Shown here in pieces: positions 6,789 through 19,986 of a stretch of DNA of 25,873 bases. Both the position numbers and the translations under genes were made by a program. Position 1 is the first letter of the stretch, and each line of letters starts with the position of its first letter. Origin of the DNA: a virus (Duplodnaviria; Heunggongvirae; Uroviricota; Caudoviricetes); the IMG/VR virus record IMGVR_UViG_3300047323_000428, positions 85,208 to 111,080 of that record; one strand, given 5' to 3'. The notes beneath the pieces were generated by a model. That model was not told the DNA's origin. It did not search any database and saw only the letters and a program-made list of their open reading frames with translations.

Positions 6789-7430
6789 TTAACTCAGCCA
6801 GAGCATTCGCTCCATGTCGCTGTCTAGCTTGATGATGGTTTGATACGCGTGACGCAACTGCGGCCACTCCATGTCGAAGATTTCGGCCAGCTCCAGGGAG
6901 AGTCCGAATAGCGGGGTCACGCGCTCCTCGACTTGCTGCCAAAAGACGTAGTGCGTGCGAATGTGGTGAGGCGCCGCACGCAGGATCGCTTCGGCAAGTG
7001 GTGTGACCATTTGACGCTGGCGGAATTCCCGCACCCTCTCCCATTTGAGCGTAATGAGGTCGTCGATCGGCAGATCCATTTCAAGTCCGAAGAGGACCGC
7101 TGCCGGGCGCGGTGTCGAGAGTTTCATCAAACCGCGCTTGAGCTCGCCAAGCGTCATGCGCTCTTGCGGTATAGCAAAGCGCATCAGTGGCACCTCTACG
7201 ATCTCGCCTCGTGCGAAAGCCGCGGTGAGTTGCGCAAGCAGTGTTTCGACAATTGCGACCCCTTCCTCGTCGCGGTGATCGAGTTTGAGCCGGGTGAGGA
7301 ATGCGTGAAGCTGGACCGGATGGATTTTTTCCAGCGGAGTGTCCCACATGGGGGATTGGGCGATGGGGGTGTCACCCAGGAGAGACGACAACTCTCCAAC
7401 GTTTTTGAGCGCCTGCATGTTGTTCTCCAT
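6789..7430 (-). CDS. Hypothetical protein with a degenerate tyrosine-recombinase-like segment
   Basis: AAVLFGLEMDLPIDDLITLKWERV resembles integrase box I (ll..tGlR..El..L.w..i) with Pro in place of the catalytic Arg; no HxxR/Y box II seen. Confidence 0.5.
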   Translation of the reverse strand: MENNMQALKNVGELSSLLGDTPIAQSPMWDTPLEKIHPVQLHAFLTRLKLDHRDEEGVAIVETLLAQLTAAFARGEIVEVPLMRFAIPQERMTLGELKRGLMKLSTPRPAAVLFGLEMDLPIDDLITLKWERVREFRQRQMVTPLAEAILRAAPHHIRTHYVFWQQVEERVTPLFGLSLELAEIFDMEWPQLRHAYQTIIKLDSDMERMLWLS

Positions 7431-9645: not shown

Positions 9646-11036
9646 GCTGCGAGCGCCTCCTCGACCTTCTTGCCGGTGACGGCGTTCGCACGGGCGGCGA
9701 GCACTTCTTCGAGGCTGTCGGCGACGTCCTTGTCCGTGCGATAGCCGGCTTCGGCCATGCGCGGAAGGAACAGGCTGTGCAGCGGGTTGCTGTCGGAGGG
9801 ATACATGACCTCGTTAAAGCGCACCGGCCACACGTGACCGATAAAGGCTTCCCGGTCGGCGTCGATGGCATCACGCAGCGCTTCGTTTTTCACCGCCACG
9901 TAGACGCGCAGCTTGTCGTCACGGGTGCGCATGCCTACACGCCCTGCCCGGCCTTCGTTCTTGGTGCCCGCTTCGCCGTCGAGGATTTCGAACGACTCCA
10001 GATCCACGTCGATTTCGAGCTTGAGCTTGACCACATCGGGGTTGCCGCTGGAGGTGTCTTTCCAGATGCCCGAGCCATTCTTGATGACCGTCCCTTCCTT
10101 ACCCTCAATCTGCAGGCTCGCGCAGTGCGCGTAGGCTTCGTCGAGGGACTTGACGATCTTCGTCGGGATCAGACGCACGGACGTGCCTTCATAGCTCACC
10201 AACTGCTTGAGCAGGCCTTTGAATCGCTCGCGGTAAGGCGTGTCGCACTTACCCTTCGGCAGCGCGACGTCCAGCGGGATTTGGTCCCAGGCGAAGAAGA
10301 CCGGCTTCTGGTTGGGCTCGAAATCGCCGCCAGCGAGCACGCTGTTCAGAATGCCGTTCCCGACTTCGCGCGATGCGACCACACCATCGACCAACACAAC
10401 GATTTCGCCGTGCGTCTGCGTCCCCATCGGGAACACCTTCTTGACGTTGTGCTCCAGTGCCGGGAACTTCTCGATCGGCAGTTCGTTGCCCTGGCGCGTG
10501 GTCAGGCGCACGACGCCCGCGTGGTCGTGGTCGACGTTCGTGAATGCGCCGTCAGCCTTGTGCTGACTGAACGCGCCCGCCTTCCAGTCCCACTTGTCGA
10601 ACTTGGCCTTCTCCGGCAGCACGCAGCGCATGTAGGGGAACGAGCGAATCGTGCCCTTCTTCGCCTTGTTGACGGTTTCCGCCGAGAAGCCCGCGCGCAG
10701 GTCTTTCTTGATGATGCGCCAGAAGAGTTCGGACGATGCCGGTTCGAGACGGGCCAGTTCGGTGCGCACCGTGTCGATGGCGGCGTTGCCGGTGAGTTCG
10801 CGGCACTCAAGCTGAGTGATGATTTCCCACGTATAGGCCTCGAACATGCCGTCACCGTTCGTTTCGATCGACGGGCGTTTGCTGATGCCGTAGCTGATGA
10901 GCGGGTCGAGTGCGCTAATCAGCACGTCCTTGAAGAACTTGTCCTCGATGTTTGCCGAGACAAGTGCTTGCTTTTCGTTCTTGCTGCTGGTCGCGGCGAT
11001 CATATCGATCAGCAAGAAGGCTTCTTTTGAGTTCAT
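9642..11036 (-). CDS. lig: ATP-dependent DNA ligase
   Basis: Motif I KADG, motif III THGEIV, motif IV EGTVIK, motif V VKLK, and a C-terminal OB fold ending SLFLPR. Confidence 0.9.
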   Translation of the reverse strand: MNSKEAFLLIDMIAATSSKNEKQALVSANIEDKFFKDVLISALDPLISYGISKRPSIETNGDGMFEAYTWEIITQLECRELTGNAAIDTVRTELARLEPASSELFWRIIKKDLRAGFSAETVNKAKKGTIRSFPYMRCVLPEKAKFDKWDWKAGAFSQHKADGAFTNVDHDHAGVVRLTTRQGNELPIEKFPALEHNVKKVFPMGTQTHGEIVVLVDGVVASREVGNGILNSVLAGGDFEPNQKPVFFAWDQIPLDVALPKGKCDTPYRERFKGLLKQLVSYEGTSVRLIPTKIVKSLDEAYAHCASLQIEGKEGTVIKNGSGIWKDTSSGNPDVVKLKLEIDVDLESFEILDGEAGTKNEGRAGRVGMRTRDDKLRVYVAVKNEALRDAIDADREAFIGHVWPVRFNEVMYPSDSNPLHSLFLPRMAEAGYRTDKDVADSLEEVLAARANAVTGKKVEEALAA

Positions 11037-13959: not shown

Positions 13960-14061
13960 TTAGCTGCACGCCTGGGCGAGCAGGGTGATGAGGATGGGCA
14001 GGCCGAGCCGCCCACCGCTGAAGAGGATCAGGAGAAGCAGGAATACCCAGGGGTGGCTCAT
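13960..14061 (-). CDS. Small membrane peptide, 33 aa
   Basis: MSHPWVFLLLLILFSGGRLGLPILITLLAQACS; ATGA overlap with the upstream stop and fills the gap exactly. Confidence 0.6.
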   Translation of the reverse strand: MSHPWVFLLLLILFSGGRLGLPILITLLAQACS

Positions 14062-14261
14062 GCTGCGCCCGTCTTCGACACTTGCCGGATGACCTTTCCG
14101 ATCCGGGCGGCCGCATCCACGCCGGCGAGGTTTGCATCGGTGGCCGGGCCGCTCAAGCACCAATGCCGCTCGGCTTCCGCCACGTCGAAGGCAAAGTTGA
14201 GCGCCAGCTCGAAGCCGCGCTCAAAGGCCTCTTCTTCCTTGCGATGATTCAAAATGCCCAT
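14058..14261 (-). CDS. Hypothetical protein, 67 aa
   Basis: TAATG coupling to the helicase stop. Confidence 0.7.
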   Translation of the reverse strand: MGILNHRKEEEAFERGFELALNFAFDVAEAERHWCLSGPATDANLAGVDAAARIGKVIRQVSKTGAA

Positions 14262-15673
14262 TACTCGACCCTCAAAATGCCCTTGATGAACGTCATCGTC
14301 GCCATGTCTTGTTGGATGAACACGGTGAAGCCTGACTCCTGATTCCGTGAAGCAGCGAAATACAGCCGCGCTTCGCCTTTTGACCGCTCCTCATCAGTGA
14401 TGTTGATGGAGATCACCAAGTCGGCAATTCGGATGCGGTTGAAGTCCTCTGCGACGTGTTCGGCTTTTGCCACCGTCGACTTGAAGCCTTCGCGGTTGGT
14501 CTGCGTGGCCGAAAGCATCGCAAAGCCTTCCACCAGCGCGATATCCCGCATGTCGGTGTAGACGGACTTCGAGTTCTCCACCGTGTCCGGCGTGCGAATG
14601 TTCGGCGCCATAATGTCGAGGTAGTCGACCACCACCACGTCGAAGATCACGCCCTTCGCCTTGTAGCGGTCGATCAACGTCTGCATCTTGTTGGGCGTGA
14701 ACTTGCCCGCCGGATGAACGGCGATCTTGAGCATTCCCGCTCTCGCCCGCAGCGCTTTGATTTTGCTATCGGTATCGTGGATGTTCTTGCCGAGCTCCTT
14801 GATCTTGTTCTCGGCTATTGACGCATCCAGGCGCATGGAGATAATCTCTTCCTGCAGCTCCAGTGACACGTAGAGGACGTTCTTTCCAGCGAGCGACGCA
14901 TTCTTAGCGAAATTTAGGAGTGCTGTGGACTTGCCCGCCTTAGCCCCGCCCATAAACAACGTCAGTTCGCGCCGACCCCAGCCCTTGTGCATCAGGATTT
15001 CATCGAGCTTGGGCAAGCCTGTGGAGATGCCCTTCGGCGGCGTCTTGCCGGATGCGGCGTCAAGGCGTTCTTCGGTTCGCGCCTCGATTCCGCCCCAGTA
15101 GTCGTAGTCATCCTCGTCCTCATTCAAGCCGACGTCATATGCTTCCTTGATCGACTTGAGGATCGGATCGAACTTCTTCTTCTCCAGCAGGCTCACCGAG
15201 GACAGGATCGCGTTGCTGACTGCCTGGTGCCGAGCGAACTCCGCAACCTTCTCAGCCACGAAGTCACGATCGCCCACGTCGGCGTCTTTCAATACCTTGA
15301 TCGCCCGCAGCACTTCGCCGGCGAAGTCCTTCTTCATGCGCGCGCTTGCAATCTCATCACGCAAGAGCGTCGGGAGAACACCGAAGTCGGGAACGCGCTT
15401 GAAGCGGTCGAAATAGCGCTTGACGAGGTCCACCAGACCCGCTTCACCGCTATTCTCGAAGTAGTCGGGCTTGAGCAGGTGCGACGTGCGGCGCATGAAT
15501 TCCGTATCGCGCAGCACGAGCGTAGCGATCTTGCTCTGGAACTCCTCGTCGAACTCGAACTTGGCGACTTCTTCGGCCGGCGAGGCTTCCGCTTCAACGG
15601 CCGCGCCGCTGAACGCTTTGCCCACCATTTCAGCGACCGACTCCTCGACGCTCGGAATGGTGGTGTCGCTCAT
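14261..15673 (-). CDS. DnaB-like (SF4) replicative DNA helicase
   Basis: Walker A GGAKAGKS, YVSLE, VVVDYLD, SATQTNR, AEDF...ADLVISI, ASRN. Confidence 0.92.
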   Translation of the reverse strand: MSDTTIPSVEESVAEMVGKAFSGAAVEAEASPAEEVAKFEFDEEFQSKIATLVLRDTEFMRRTSHLLKPDYFENSGEAGLVDLVKRYFDRFKRVPDFGVLPTLLRDEIASARMKKDFAGEVLRAIKVLKDADVGDRDFVAEKVAEFARHQAVSNAILSSVSLLEKKKFDPILKSIKEAYDVGLNEDEDDYDYWGGIEARTEERLDAASGKTPPKGISTGLPKLDEILMHKGWGRRELTLFMGGAKAGKSTALLNFAKNASLAGKNVLYVSLELQEEIISMRLDASIAENKIKELGKNIHDTDSKIKALRARAGMLKIAVHPAGKFTPNKMQTLIDRYKAKGVIFDVVVVDYLDIMAPNIRTPDTVENSKSVYTDMRDIALVEGFAMLSATQTNREGFKSTVAKAEHVAEDFNRIRIADLVISINITDEERSKGEARLYFAASRNQESGFTVFIQQDMATMTFIKGILRVE

Positions 15674-16149
15674 TGGTAGTGGCCCTCTTCAGCGCGCTCG
15701 ACAGCGGGCTTCGCAGCCGGCGTGCGACGCAGCGGCACGAAGCGCTGAATGGCGTGCTTGAAAATCACGTTCACTTCGAAGCTGCCAGCTTGCTCGGCTT
15801 CGATACCGGCCAGCTCAACCTCCACCGAGATCGTGTATTTGTCATGCGCCCGGATTTTGCCGACGATCGGTTCGTCCTGATCGAGCAGATAGACCTTGAT
15901 GCGCGCACCGGACTCCTGCAGCGCCTTGACGAACGCTTCGTGACCGACCGGGGCTTGCTTATTCGGCTTGGCGGCAGCGCGCGTGTTGCTGCGCAGATGA
16001 CCGGTGCCGGTCGTGCGGCTCGGCTCGTAGCCAGGGCGGGTGCCCAGACGCGGACGGGCGGCTTGCGGCGTATCGTCGTCGCAGCGAGCCATGCGCTGAC
16101 CTTCACGCAGTTGCTCGGCACGCGCTTGTTCGGGGGTGAGATAACTCAT
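15670..16149 (-). CDS. hfq: Hfq-like Sm-fold RNA-binding protein with a long N-terminal extension, 159 aa
   Basis: Start MSYLTP at 16149 (RBS GGAGA). EAFVKAL...IKVYL...GKIRAHDKYTI...VIFKHAI..FVP aligns with Hfq DPFLNAL...VSIYL...GQIESFDQFVI...MVYKHAI..VVP. Confidence 0.75.
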   Translation of the reverse strand: MSYLTPEQARAEQLREGQRMARCDDDTPQAARPRLGTRPGYEPSRTTGTGHLRSNTRAAAKPNKQAPVGHEAFVKALQESGARIKVYLLDQDEPIVGKIRAHDKYTISVEVELAGIEAEQAGSFEVNVIFKHAIQRFVPLRRTPAAKPAVERAEEGHYQ

Positions 16150-16205
16150 GAAACTTCTCCAACGCGGGGAAAATGGGGTAATCGAAACGTCACACTGACG
16201 CACAC

Positions 16206-16224
16206 ATTATAGTCAATTTTGACT
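16206..16224 (-). promoter_or_regulatory. Operator AGTCA-N4-TGACT (16211-16224) fused to a perfect -10 TATAAT
   Basis: Minus strand taatAGTCAAAATTGACTATAATg, upstream of the hfq-helicase operon. Confidence 0.85.
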
Positions 16225-16225
16225 A

Positions 16226-16957
16226 TTACTCGCTAACAAGATCGATGGCTTGACTGACGACGCCCGGAGGGAACTCGGCAAGGGCGCGCTCGATCCTGAG
16301 CACCCCGTGCGTGTAGAGCGCGGCCGACAGGGAATACTGGTGGTGCCGGCGCTGCTTGATCTGGGCGATGAGGAAGTCTTCATAGGCAATCTGATCGGCG
16401 TGGCCGAACCAGTTCTGCGCCAGATACCGCTCGTCCTTGCAGATTTGGAGGCTATTGCGGCACTCCTCTTCCCAGGCGATCACCAGCTCCGCCAGCATCT
16501 CCTCGTTGGCGTTGATGTGGGAGGGGCGCGGTGCGTGGTGCCAGTTGTGCGCGATCTTCCAATTCATTGCGAAGCGCAGGAAAAAATCGTATCGAGTGCC
16601 GAGCTGATCTGCCGTTTGCCGCAGCATCCAGAGCGCCTTCTTCTCTTTCGCTACCATGAAATCTTCGCCGCCCTTGAATGGACGCATGAAGCGGCCCCGC
16701 TCGTGATCGAACGTCGTCACCATGAAATTCTGATACGCCTTCAGATAGCACTGCGCGAAGAGGTAGGTCGCTTTCGTCGGGTGCATACGCCGGTAGTCGA
16801 ACCACTTGGTCGTGAGCAGTTCCGGCTCCCGCTTGAGCAGCTTGCCCTCGATGTTCGCAATCGCCTTCACTTCGCAGTGCAGGAAAGACAGGTCATGCCC
16901 GTAGAACTCGCCGAACCATTCCGCGGTCTTGGGTTCGACTTGGGTAACTTGGGTCAT
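16226..16957 (-). CDS. Hypothetical phage protein, 243 aa (KWFDYRRMHP motif), replication region
   Basis: Long, aromatic-rich protein-like ORF with typical codon usage; function not recognised. Confidence 0.8.
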   Translation of the reverse strand: MTQVTQVEPKTAEWFGEFYGHDLSFLHCEVKAIANIEGKLLKREPELLTTKWFDYRRMHPTKATYLFAQCYLKAYQNFMVTTFDHERGRFMRPFKGGEDFMVAKEKKALWMLRQTADQLGTRYDFFLRFAMNWKIAHNWHHAPRPSHINANEEMLAELVIAWEEECRNSLQICKDERYLAQNWFGHADQIAYEDFLIAQIKQRRHHQYSLSAALYTHGVLRIERALAEFPPGVVSQAIDLVSE

Positions 16958-17959: not shown

Positions 17960-18703
17960 TCAGGGGCTTGACAATGCCGCTTCACCCATCGGGCGACGAA
18001 TGCGCTGCATCGGCCCGGTCGCGGCTTCCTCGAGCGTCATGCCGAGCTTCATCCGGTAGGCGATCGTCTGTCTTGACCTGCCGACCAATTCCTCGAGCTG
18101 GCGCATCGTCACCATCTGACCCTGCCATTCGACGGTCGCCTTGGCGGCTCTCATGCGGCCCTTCGCTTCCTCCGAGTGCGCGATGCCCGTGTTGGGAGGT
18201 GGCTTGCCTTTGTTGGCTGCGCTCAGGTTGGCACGGTGCGCCGCGCTCTTTGGCTTGCCAAGGTGGGCCACCCGGATCGCCTCCCGCGACTGGTCTGTGT
18301 GCGGCGCTCCAGGCTTGCCCATTTTCGCAGCGCTGATTCTGGCCCGAGCCTCTGGTGAGTTCTTGAGGCCGCGCCTCGATCCGTTACGCCCTTCCCAGCA
18401 AATGTTGTAGCCGAAGGCGTCATCGGTCAATTGTCGGCCGCGGATCTGCTCTTCCTCGATCCGATCAAGATCGTCGCCTTCGCAGTAGCAGATCACCTCT
18501 AGGACGAAGGAGTCTTCCCCATATTTCGACCAGGCGTTCTGCAGGCGCCCATTGTAGTGAGCGCCCCTGCGGAGTAATTTTCGATGGTCGGCGAACCGCC
18601 TGAGCATGTTGACCGATTGCCCGACATACACCCTGTCGTTCGCTGTGTTGCGAATCTGGTATATGCCGGACTTGGCAAACAGCTCACGATCTTCTTCCGT
18701 CAT
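17960..18703 (-). CDS. Free-standing GIY-YIG homing endonuclease with NUMOD3-type repeats
   Basis: Start MTEEDR at 18703 (ATGA overlap). SGIYQIRN...VYVGQS...RFADH and HYNGRLQNAWSKYG; repeats HTDQSREAI and HSEEAKGRM. Confidence 0.88.
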   Translation of the reverse strand: MTEEDRELFAKSGIYQIRNTANDRVYVGQSVNMLRRFADHRKLLRRGAHYNGRLQNAWSKYGEDSFVLEVICYCEGDDLDRIEEEQIRGRQLTDDAFGYNICWEGRNGSRRGLKNSPEARARISAAKMGKPGAPHTDQSREAIRVAHLGKPKSAAHRANLSAANKGKPPPNTGIAHSEEAKGRMRAAKATVEWQGQMVTMRQLEELVGRSRQTIAYRMKLGMTLEEAATGPMQRIRRPMGEAALSSP

Positions 18704-19986
18704 GCAACCACTCGCACCAATTCCTTCGCGTTGCGATAGTAGAACTGGCCGCCCACCACGGCGAAGTCGGTGATCGGGATGTATTCCTGATTCACGGCCT
18801 TCTTTTCCGTGTCGATATGCGCCAGCAGAAAGCCCATGTCCCACTTCTCGGCATTGCAATACGACGCATCCTGCAGGTGGCCGCACCCCGTTTGAATCCA
18901 GCTATAGGAGCCGAAAATCTCGTTGTAGCAGGGCGTCACCTTGAACTTGTGGGAGTGACCATTCGTTCCCGGCAAGCCGAGCTTCACGCCTTCGGGGAAG
19001 TGGTTCGTTGCGTAGCAGTCGAAATAGACCTTATAGTTCTTGGCGACTTCCGACTTGATGTTCGTTGCCGTGTAGGCGCCGAGGTCTGACTTGGCAATGA
19101 AGTTCACCTGGAACTTGTCGAGAGCGAGCAGACTACCCACGGTAAAGCCGTGCAGGTCGGAAAGCAATACCTTCATCGCAGGCGTTGCATCTGCAAGGTG
19201 CTTTACCAGACGATCCTCGTGATTGCCCGAGATCCAGTCGATCTGAGCATTGGGGCAGGCCTCACGCAGCGGCTTCAGGATGCGTTCGTGGACGAACTTG
19301 ATTTTGCCCACCACATCGAAGTTGCGCGGGTCTACCGCGTAGCGACCGAACTCCGTTGCATCCCACACGTCGCCGTTGAGCGCGATGATTTCGGGCTGCA
19401 CTCGCTTCGCAGTGTCGATCAATACCCGGAGATAGAACGGGTCCACAAGTTCGTCGTGCAAGTCGGAGCAGACGAGAATGGTTTGGAATCGCTTCTTGTC
19501 TTTGCGCTCGTATTTCGCCGCATATGAGGCGCGCTGCTCTGCCAAGTTACGATAGTGGTCCACCGAGACATGCTTCGCAACATGGCGCTCCAACTGATGC
19601 TGCTGGCGCGAGAGCTTCAGTTGCGCCTGGCGCATGAACTCGTTGAAGGTGCCGAAGTGGTGATTCCAGGCGGATTCTGCGAGCGGCCCGTATTTGCGGA
19701 ACGAATCGCGCGTGACGCCCTTTTCCGAATTGAGCAGCGCGAACGTGCGCAGGTGCTCGATACACTCTTCCGCCGTCGCCTCACGGATGCGCTCCGTGTT
19801 CTCCGACAGGGGAAGCTCCACGCCATTGCGGTTGATGACCTTGCCCGCGTATTGCTTGGTGCGGCGCAGAGCGACCGCCTTGTTCTTCACCGTCTGCACC
19901 GAGAGCCCAAGCTCCCGCGCGACGTCTTGCATGGAGGGGAACTCTTTGGTGTTGTTGAACACCTTGACGAATTGGTCGTGCATCAT
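18700..19986 (-). CDS. Calcineurin-like metallophosphoesterase with N-terminal DNA-binding-like domains
   Basis: SDLH, NGDVWD, GNHEDR, GHSH motifs; N-terminal SMQDVARELGLSVQTVKNKA resembles an HTH. Confidence 0.85.
   Translation of the reverse strand: MMHDQFVKVFNNTKEFPSMQDVARELGLSVQTVKNKAVALRRTKQYAGKVINRNGVELPLSENTERIREATAEECIEHLRTFALLNSEKGVTRDSFRKYGPLAESAWNHHFGTFNEFMRQAQLKLSRQQHQLERHVAKHVSVDHYRNLAEQRASYAAKYERKDKKRFQTILVCSDLHDELVDPFYLRVLIDTAKRVQPEIIALNGDVWDATEFGRYAVDPRNFDVVGKIKFVHERILKPLREACPNAQIDWISGNHEDRLVKHLADATPAMKVLLSDLHGFTVGSLLALDKFQVNFIAKSDLGAYTATNIKSEVAKNYKVYFDCYATNHFPEGVKLGLPGTNGHSHKFKVTPCYNEIFGSYSWIQTGCGHLQDASYCNAEKWDMGFLLAHIDTEKKAVNQEYIPITDFAVVGGQFYYRNAKELVRVVA

Follow-up and report, generated by a model that had tools for sequence, protein, structure and literature searches.

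A divergent Hfq-family protein encoded directly before the replicative helicase gene in a lineage of phages and phage-plasmids

Introduction

To our knowledge, Hfq is among the best-studied of the bacterial RNA regulators, and the copies of it that are encoded by phages are without an assigned role. The uridine pocket on the proximal face of Hfq is built from the DKY and FKH residues, DKY being the form seen in Staphylococcus aureus Hfq. Small proteins of another kind are encoded beside helicases of the DnaB family: in phage SPP1, genes 38, 39, and 40 follow the order of initiator, loader, and helicase, with G39P being a small loader, and loaders of the DciA type combine a compact, nucleic-acid-binding-type fold with a long disordered segment. 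Here we describe an Hfq-like gene that directly precedes the gene of a DnaB-like replicative helicase in a stretch of 25,873 nucleotides (hereafter the window), which makes up the last 25.9 kb of the 111,080-bp IMG/VR virus record IMGVR_UViG_3300047323_000428, a record rated complete whose source element is a 111-kb phage-plasmid. By homology and fold, the encoded protein belongs to the Hfq/Sm family, of which it is a divergent member specific to a phage lineage, and it probably acts as a replication-linked nucleic-acid binder rather than as a classical small-RNA (sRNA) matchmaker.

The nearest solved relatives of the protein are the bacterial Hfqs of Aquifex aeolicus (5szd), Bacillus subtilis (3ahu/3hsb), and Listeria (4nl2/4noy), with which it has in common the Sm fold, the residues G97 and D103, the FKHAI motif, and the proximal pocket. 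It differs from them in having a His in place of Q8, a Q-E-S-G rim, a loop insertion, and scores that fall below the curated cut-offs, whereas the distal Tyr is found in the window protein itself but is not conserved in its family. Furthermore, the phage protein carries a 69-residue N-terminal extension where bacterial Hfq carries a C-terminal tail, and, unlike that of bacterial Hfq, its gene is fixed before dnaB. Two members of the same family, WP_000614153.1 of Acinetobacter baumannii and gp117 of Pseudomonas phage nickie, are encoded at the same position directly before a DnaB-like gene; their N-terminal extensions differ in length and sequence, with none in nickie gp117 and about 105 residues in the A. 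baumannii member, and the R..Q..EGRRMA helix of the window protein is missing from both, all members of the family being uncharacterised. An Sm-like fold is also shared with the “Hfq-like domain-containing protein” of the Mycobacterium phages Tonenili and Phabba, likewise uncharacterised, which were retrieved by a structural search of BFVD with E values of 9e-4 and 4e-3. A full-text search of the literature for phage Hfq-like genes in linkage with a helicase returned no study.

The likeness to the helicase loaders is one of arrangement, and we offer it as an analogy, with no claim of membership. As with G39P and DciA, a small protein that joins a compact domain to a disordered segment would be co-expressed with a DnaB-family helicase from a gene directly upstream of it, and, as in the SPP1 38-39-40 series, the small protein and then the helicase follow a conserved upstream protein. 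The loader-type position of the gene is borne out by its overlap with the helicase start and by synteny; similarity to a known loader in sequence or fold was not found, as the Pfam, PHROGs, and NCBIfam searches gave matches only to Hfq or to families of unknown function, and all top fold matches were to Hfq.

Homology and fold of the Hfq-like protein

The assignment to the Hfq family draws on domain, profile, and structure searches. Pfam Hfq (PF17209) matches residues 72–142 with an E value of 3e-5 and 24.0 bits, under the 27-bit cut-off, and the NCBIfam Hfq equivalogs are missed by a wide margin (TIGR02383, 20.5 against 61.7 bits; NF001602, 15.8 against 95), such that the protein falls outside Hfq as delimited by the curated thresholds of both databases; the A. 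baumannii family member narrowly clears the Pfam cut-off, with 27.7 bits. A profile built from 11 close homologues, when compared with the PDB, matches A. aeolicus Hfq 5szd at 1e-7 and B. subtilis Hfq 3ahu at 3e-7, together with about 35 further solved Hfq sequences. An AlphaFold2 model computed from a 40-sequence family alignment has a mean predicted local distance difference test score (pLDDT) of 83, rising to 94–98 in the core, and displays Sm topology; in a Foldseek comparison with the PDB, its best 50 matches are all Hfq, with template-modelling scores, normalised by target, of up to 0.89 and an identity of the core to the solved Hfqs of only about 15–26%. The preliminary description of this DNA, made from the letters alone, had proposed profile searches and structure prediction as a check on its suggestion of an Sm-like fold, and the suggestion holds.

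The Sm/Hfq domain comprises residues 70–140 (15730..15942, minus strand) and consists of an N-terminal helix (residues 70–80) followed by the five strands that are expected of an Sm fold (83–88, 95–102, 106–112, 124–130, and 134–139). The Sm1 Gly and Asp (G97 and D103) and the Sm2 FKHAI motif are present, and the VYL, HDKY, and FKHAI motifs listed in the preliminary description are all present, at Y87, D103-K104-Y105, and F130-K131-H132. As the protein lies under the curated thresholds and two of the defining functional surfaces of Hfq appear to be missing from its family, as set out below, we file it as a divergent Hfq-family variant and not as “the RNA chaperone Hfq”. Assembly of the Sm core into a ring is most likely, a prediction made from the conserved Sm2 interface strand only.

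Conservation of the RNA-binding surfaces

An exhaustive HMMER search gathered the family into 148 representative clusters (50% identity, E<1e-3) of proteins of about 80 to 170 residues, and residue conservation was scored on 40 representatives that are only about 30–50% identical to the window protein. Four residues are invariant among them (H70, G97, D103, and V128) and seven are nearly so (E71, K104, T106, F130, K131, H132, and F137), while position 105 is aromatic throughout, being Tyr in 28 and Phe in 12. In terms of Hfq numbering, Y87 corresponds to Y25, D103/K104/Y105 to D40/Q41/F42, and F130/K131/H132 to Y55/K56/H57. The proximal uridine pocket is thus retained, as far as a sequence test can tell, with K104, Y/F105, K131, and H132 present in 38–40 of the 40 representatives and an invariant His replacing Q8.

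The other two surfaces have fared differently. At the rim, the window protein reads Q78-E79-S80-G81 where Hfq has R16-R17-E18-R19, as had been noted from the letters, and the family as a whole favours Glu (30/40), then Thr, Ala, or Glu, then Gly (32/40) at these positions. At the distal face, the equivalent of Y25 is a Tyr in only two of the 40 representatives, Glu being the commonest residue, and the Tyr is present in the window protein (Y87) and its closest relatives. In canonical Hfq, both the rim and the distal surfaces are needed for the annealing of sRNA to mRNA (PMC3753642), with the rim arginines being required for Hfq-catalysed annealing (PMC3753642); since these arginines are lost family-wide, classical sRNA–mRNA matchmaking is unlikely. 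The title of RNA chaperone that the preliminary description gave to the protein is therefore a label only, the rim having been replaced, the distal Tyr not being conserved, and the proximal pocket alone being invariant across the family. On the alignment, the family retains one of the three RNA-binding surfaces of Hfq and adds basic arms adjacent to it.

These arms belong to the N-terminal extension, which had been described as a stretch of about 65 residues rich in Arg, Pro, and Gly; the composition is as described, the length is 69 residues, and the extension is not uniformly disordered. Residues 6–24 (16078..16134, minus strand) form a helix, apparent from column conservation and from the AlphaFold2 model, that carries the motif R10..Q13..E16-G17-x-R19-M20-A21; it is modelled confidently (the blocks covering residues 1–20 have mean pLDDT values of 85–95), and a regular expression for the motif finds it in 60 of 120 family members. 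Residues 25–69 (15943..16077, minus strand) make up the disordered Arg/Pro/Gly-rich linker, with a mean pLDDT of 57–68, the last part of which, immediately ahead of the Sm helix, is a basic arm. Over the 20 residues leading up to the GHE motif, the net charge averages +4.6 in 99 family members, with a minimum of +2, and the core is slightly acidic.

Two further departures from Hfq lie within the domain. The acidic insertion reported between Sm1 and Sm2 is indeed present, at residues ~111–124 (15778..15819, minus strand), where it extends the strand 3–4 loop and includes a short helix (117–121); only four of the 11 close homologues have it, and it is variable in the family at large, being specific to one subclade. 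The loop between strands 1 and 2 is one residue longer than in Hfq. A conserved C-terminal tip (EEGHYQ or TLQ) was considered as a family feature and rejected, being likewise subclade-specific only.

Gene boundaries and coupling to the helicase gene

The Hfq-like gene occupies 15670..16149 on the minus strand and encodes 159 residues followed by a TGA stop, as delimited by the listing of open reading frames (ORFs) together with domain, profile, and fold searches. The ORF listing extends the frame to a GTG at 16203 (15670..16203, minus strand); the ATG at 16149 is the likely start, and is preferred over the upstream GTG because close homologues begin with MSYLTPEQ or MTPEQ. A Shine-Dalgarno-like GGAGAAG (16154..16160, minus strand) stands four nucleotides before this ATG.

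At its other end, the gene overlaps that of the DnaB-like replicative helicase, a protein of 470 residues (14261..15673, minus strand; Pfam DnaB_C, 2e-15; phrog_19, 4.5e-77). The overlap is an ATGA (15670..15673, minus strand; tcat on the plus strand), in which the TGA stop at 15672-15670 is laid over the helicase ATG at 15673-15671, as the preliminary description had read it. The same four-nucleotide overlap recurs in 24 related loci, and most others have the two genes spaced by −10 to +11 nucleotides; of the nine outlier loci, seven, either inspected or near-identical to an inspected one, are alignment artefacts. Judged by this arrangement of stop and start codons, the Hfq-like gene is translationally coupled to the replicative helicase gene, in agreement with the earlier description. 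One locus (L021) that appeared to encode a fusion of the Hfq-like protein with DnaB was rejected, a TAA stop separating the two genes.

Genomic context and distribution

In the window, the genes follow the order PhoH, phrog_2500, Hfq-like, DnaB, a 67-residue ORF, and primase, with an ATP-dependent ligase, lysis genes, and a ParA-type partition gene further along. A pattern scan of IMG/VR yielded 78 loci with a relative of the Hfq-like gene, and in every locus long enough to show the neighbours the order PhoH, phrog_2500, Hfq-like, DnaB, primase is kept, as is the orientation. Identity to the window across these loci is about 30–57% for the Hfq-like protein, 46–92% for DnaB, and 50–86% for primase, from which it follows that the Hfq-like protein evolves faster than its neighbours, yet the position of its gene is fixed. 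The statement in the preliminary description that Hfq is not a standard phage gene does not apply to this lineage of phages and phage-plasmids of about 110 kb, in which the gene is fixed in 78 of 78 IMG/VR loci.

The same arrangement is found in a 450-kb contig of Paraburkholderia sp., in metagenomic contigs, in a 113-kb Massilia contig that is the sole match among the GTDB species representatives, and in 27 non-mobilizable A. baumannii plasmids of 105–114 kb. The member encoded by the latter, WP_000614153.1, has 179 residues and is named “RNA chaperone Hfq” by the Prokaryotic Genome Annotation Pipeline (PGAP). Among cultivated phages, nickie gp117 is an 89-residue family member at the same position, the gene of which overlaps the DnaB start. 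Against the family profile, the A. baumannii protein scores 9e-20 and nickie gp117 scores 3e-10; the latter was detected by profile search and missed by tblastn, and tblastn of the window protein and of another family member (P0017) against isolated phage genomes gave no match. Within PHROGs, the window protein matches phrogs 5258 and 19781 (5.5e-7 and 7.5e-6), both of which are listed there as of function unknown.

Small ORFs of 68–69 residues, acidic in composition, stand at the same spot in Stenotrophomonas phage BUCTxx99 (L088, 4188-4397) and Xanthomonas phage JGB6 (L089, 4186-4392), and that of BUCTxx99 overlaps the helicase start. By eye, both resemble Sm proteins, but they have no Pfam or profile–profile support, and were not accepted as family members.

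Operator, putative promoter, and leader

Upstream of the Hfq-like gene lies a 16-bp perfect palindromic operator, TAGTCAAAATTGACTA (16210..16225), identified by reading of the sequence and by a palindrome scan. The scan of the window found related palindromes at 1242, 1297, 1649, 12551, 17910, and 21822 besides that at 16210, and because these amount to 10 strand-matches at seven sites where 0.03 would be expected by chance, we regard them as a real operator family. The family is of the type TAGTCA-N4-TGACTA and marks the immunity switch region as well as the heads of several leftward gene blocks: individual sites follow primase, precede the Hfq-like gene and PhoH, and stand close to the lysis genes. 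In L008 and L009, the closest relatives, the same operator type is located 75 nucleotides upstream of the Hfq-like gene. The presence of the immunity-switch operator type before the Hfq-like gene, and at the PhoH and primase-distal boundaries, points to expression together with the lytic replication genes.

The gene had also been credited with a TATAAT promoter of its own. The −10-like hexamer is there (16206..16211, minus strand; read directly from the sequence), overlapping the operator by two nucleotides, and the claim stands as far as the palindrome and the hexamer are concerned. An acceptable −35 hexamer was not found upstream of the gene and a consensus scan called no promoter, for which reason the TATAAT region is given as a putative promoter only. 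The 5′ leader of the gene has no significant RNA structure (z = 0.39), and an Rfam scan of the window returned no RNA family at threshold.

Neighbouring genes of the replication module

The constant upstream neighbour of the Hfq-like gene encodes a phrog_2500 protein of 243 residues (16226..16957, minus strand), and in phages of the nickie, SSU5, and RHEph10 types, too, the helicase module always has phrog_2500 as its neighbour upstream. Its predicted structure is all-alpha, with a pLDDT of 94.8; a fold search for an initiator or loader gave no match among solved structures, and its relatives in the AlphaFold DB are all uncharacterised. The protein is a candidate origin-binding or helicase-loading protein of an undescribed fold.

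Near its N-terminus, the helicase carries a conserved motif (residues ~8–23; 15605-15652, minus strand) with the consensus AE.SVA.MIG..F.G, after which a variable acidic or Pro-rich linker leads into the canonical DnaB N-terminal domain. The motif, which may represent a docking peptide on a tether, occurs in all 36 aligned helicases that are linked to the family and is absent from the helicases of SSU5, RHEph10, the A. baumannii plasmid, and BUCTxx99.

Among the other genes, the 67-residue ORF after DnaB (14058-14261, minus strand) has no PHROG match, and a gene for a GIY-YIG-type homing endonuclease (17960-18886, minus strand; phrog_314, 2e-28) lies between PhoH and a metallophosphoesterase gene. 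In the Paraburkholderia relative (L005), small genes with Pfam matches to the Acb2/Tad1 hairpin and to Sequestin (6817-7041 and 9842-10090) are located in the PhoH-helicase-primase module. Outside the window, the phage encodes homologues of the non-canonical single-stranded-DNA-binding protein (SSB) of nickie (gp098), of the DnaE polymerase, of RecA, and of an exonuclease (G000:C1:73562-82352), with a DnaQ homologue further off (C1:51648-52169). The phage genome has no SSB of the PF00436 type; the idea that the Hfq-like protein is the only SSB of the phage was rejected, given the gp098-type homologue.

Discussion

The reading that we favour, if tentatively and at a little under even confidence, is that the protein assists lytic replication as a ring that binds single strands. 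The Sm core would form the ring, to which each subunit would add a basic disordered arm and a tethered N-terminal helix. The gene is probably the first of a lytic helicase-primase unit, just downstream of the 16-bp operator, and its translation would be linked to that of the DnaB-type helicase. The ring would bind U-rich, and possibly T-rich, single-stranded nucleic acid by way of the proximal-face pocket (H70, K104, Y105, K131, and H132) and the basic arms, and would act as an accessory of lytic replication, for example in the loading of the helicase, in the handling of origin or primer RNA, or in the control of the helicase-primase message. It would not be a general sRNA–mRNA matchmaker, because neither the rim arginine patch nor the distal A-binding tyrosine is conserved in the family. 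A replication-linked role is favoured because the gene keeps its place in front of the helicase-primase genes and its translational coupling is conserved, and because the operator is shared with the immunity region and the surfaces needed for annealing appear to have been lost. Of the functions raised in the preliminary description, recruitment into DNA replication fits this contextual evidence best, and it is from context that we infer the replication role itself. A more specific form of the idea, which we consider unlikely, has the Hfq fold recruited into DNA replication as a new type of primosome or helicase-loading factor, a hexamer that would be produced in step with that of DnaB and would hold origin single-stranded DNA, or U-rich origin or primer RNA, in the proximal pocket and six basic arms, with the N-terminal helix docking on the helicase or on phrog_2500.

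Several observations weigh against a replication-linked role. The phrog_2500-DnaB-primase module also occurs in Salmonella phage SSU5 and Rhizobium phage RHEph10, both of which have only 60–118 bp between phrog_2500 and DnaB and no Hfq-like family member genome-wide, so that the protein is not generally required for this helicase. With an SSB homologue, DnaE, DnaQ, and RecA of its own, the phage presents no obvious vacant slot in its replisome. Operon neighbours need not share a function, as the anti-defence-type genes interleaved in the Paraburkholderia module illustrate; an intact proximal pocket, so far as it can be read from the alignment, would fit a role on RNA only equally well; and a search for longer relatives found no fused Hfq-like-helicase protein, a weak piece of evidence.

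The main rival is a post-transcriptional regulator of the Hfq kind, a proximal-face binder that would stabilise U-tailed RNAs, sequester them, or present them in the course of the lytic cycle; it could act on transcripts of the phage or on host sRNAs that end in a Rho-independent terminator tail, and the position before dnaB would reflect co-expression timing only, or autoregulation of the helicase-primase mRNA. We find this possible but rather doubtful. In its favour, conservation in the family is strongest at the positions that make up the uridine pocket of the proximal face in Hfq, the protein resembles RNA-binding Hfqs in its fold and has them as its nearest solved relatives, and SSU5 and RHEph10 replicate with the same helicase module in the absence of the gene, which suits an accessory with a regulatory task more than it does a core factor of replication. 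Against it, the family as a whole has kept neither the rim arginines nor the distal tyrosine, the rim being needed for annealing (PMC3753642), no Rfam family reaches threshold in the window, the leader has no significant structure (z = 0.39), and a regulator gives no evident reason for the lasting link to the dnaB start across members that are only about 30% identical to the window protein. Service to the SOS-box RNA, which the preliminary description had suggested, found no support.

Two other readings involve the host. A decoy for anti-defence or takeover, in which the ring would act as a sponge for an immune RNA or nucleotide signal or would bind a host RNA-binding partner, is in our judgement improbable. 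It would agree with the Acb2/Tad1-hairpin and Sequestin genes that flank the module of the Paraburkholderia relative a few genes away, with the faster evolution of the Hfq-like protein (about 30–57% identity, against 46–92% for DnaB and 50–86% for primase), and with the titles of solved Hfq entries, which include complexes with ATP, ADPNP, and CTP; yet the Pfam, PHROGs, and NCBIfam searches of the Hfq-like protein returned no homology to a known sponge, and anti-defence genes are usually patchy and mobile, whereas the position of this gene is fixed in all 78 loci. Interference with host Hfq, through mixed hexamers or through competition for its RNA or protein partners, is the least probable of the readings, and we give it very little credence. 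The shared Sm2 FKHAI strand, which is the subunit interface in Hfq, speaks for it, but core identity to the solved Hfqs is only about 15–26%, the strand 1–2 loop has an extra residue and a variable insertion lies between strands 3 and 4, and the hosts of the family (Burkholderiales, Pseudomonas, and Acinetobacter) have very different Hfqs. The nearest sequence matches, moreover, are to the Hfqs of Aquifex and Bacillus rather than to proteobacterial ones, which likewise argues against recent capture from a host; the poisoning of host Hfq by mixed hexamers, as the preliminary description had put it, is thus left without support by the low core identity and the non-proteobacterial affinities.

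Significance

The family amounts to a natural dissection of Hfq, in which the proximal pocket has been kept, the rim and distal surfaces have apparently been dropped, and basic N-terminal arms have been added, with the gene being locked to that of the replicative helicase across members only about 30% identical to the window protein. Its relatives are already being annotated automatically as “RNA chaperone Hfq”. As the family is present in phage-plasmids of clinical A. baumannii and in cultivable phages of Pseudomonas syringae, its function is directly testable. If the role in replication is true, the Sm fold would be linked to DNA replication and the protein would represent a new kind of helicase accessory factor; if instead its role is on RNA, the family would serve to model viruses that come with a minimal Hfq of their own.

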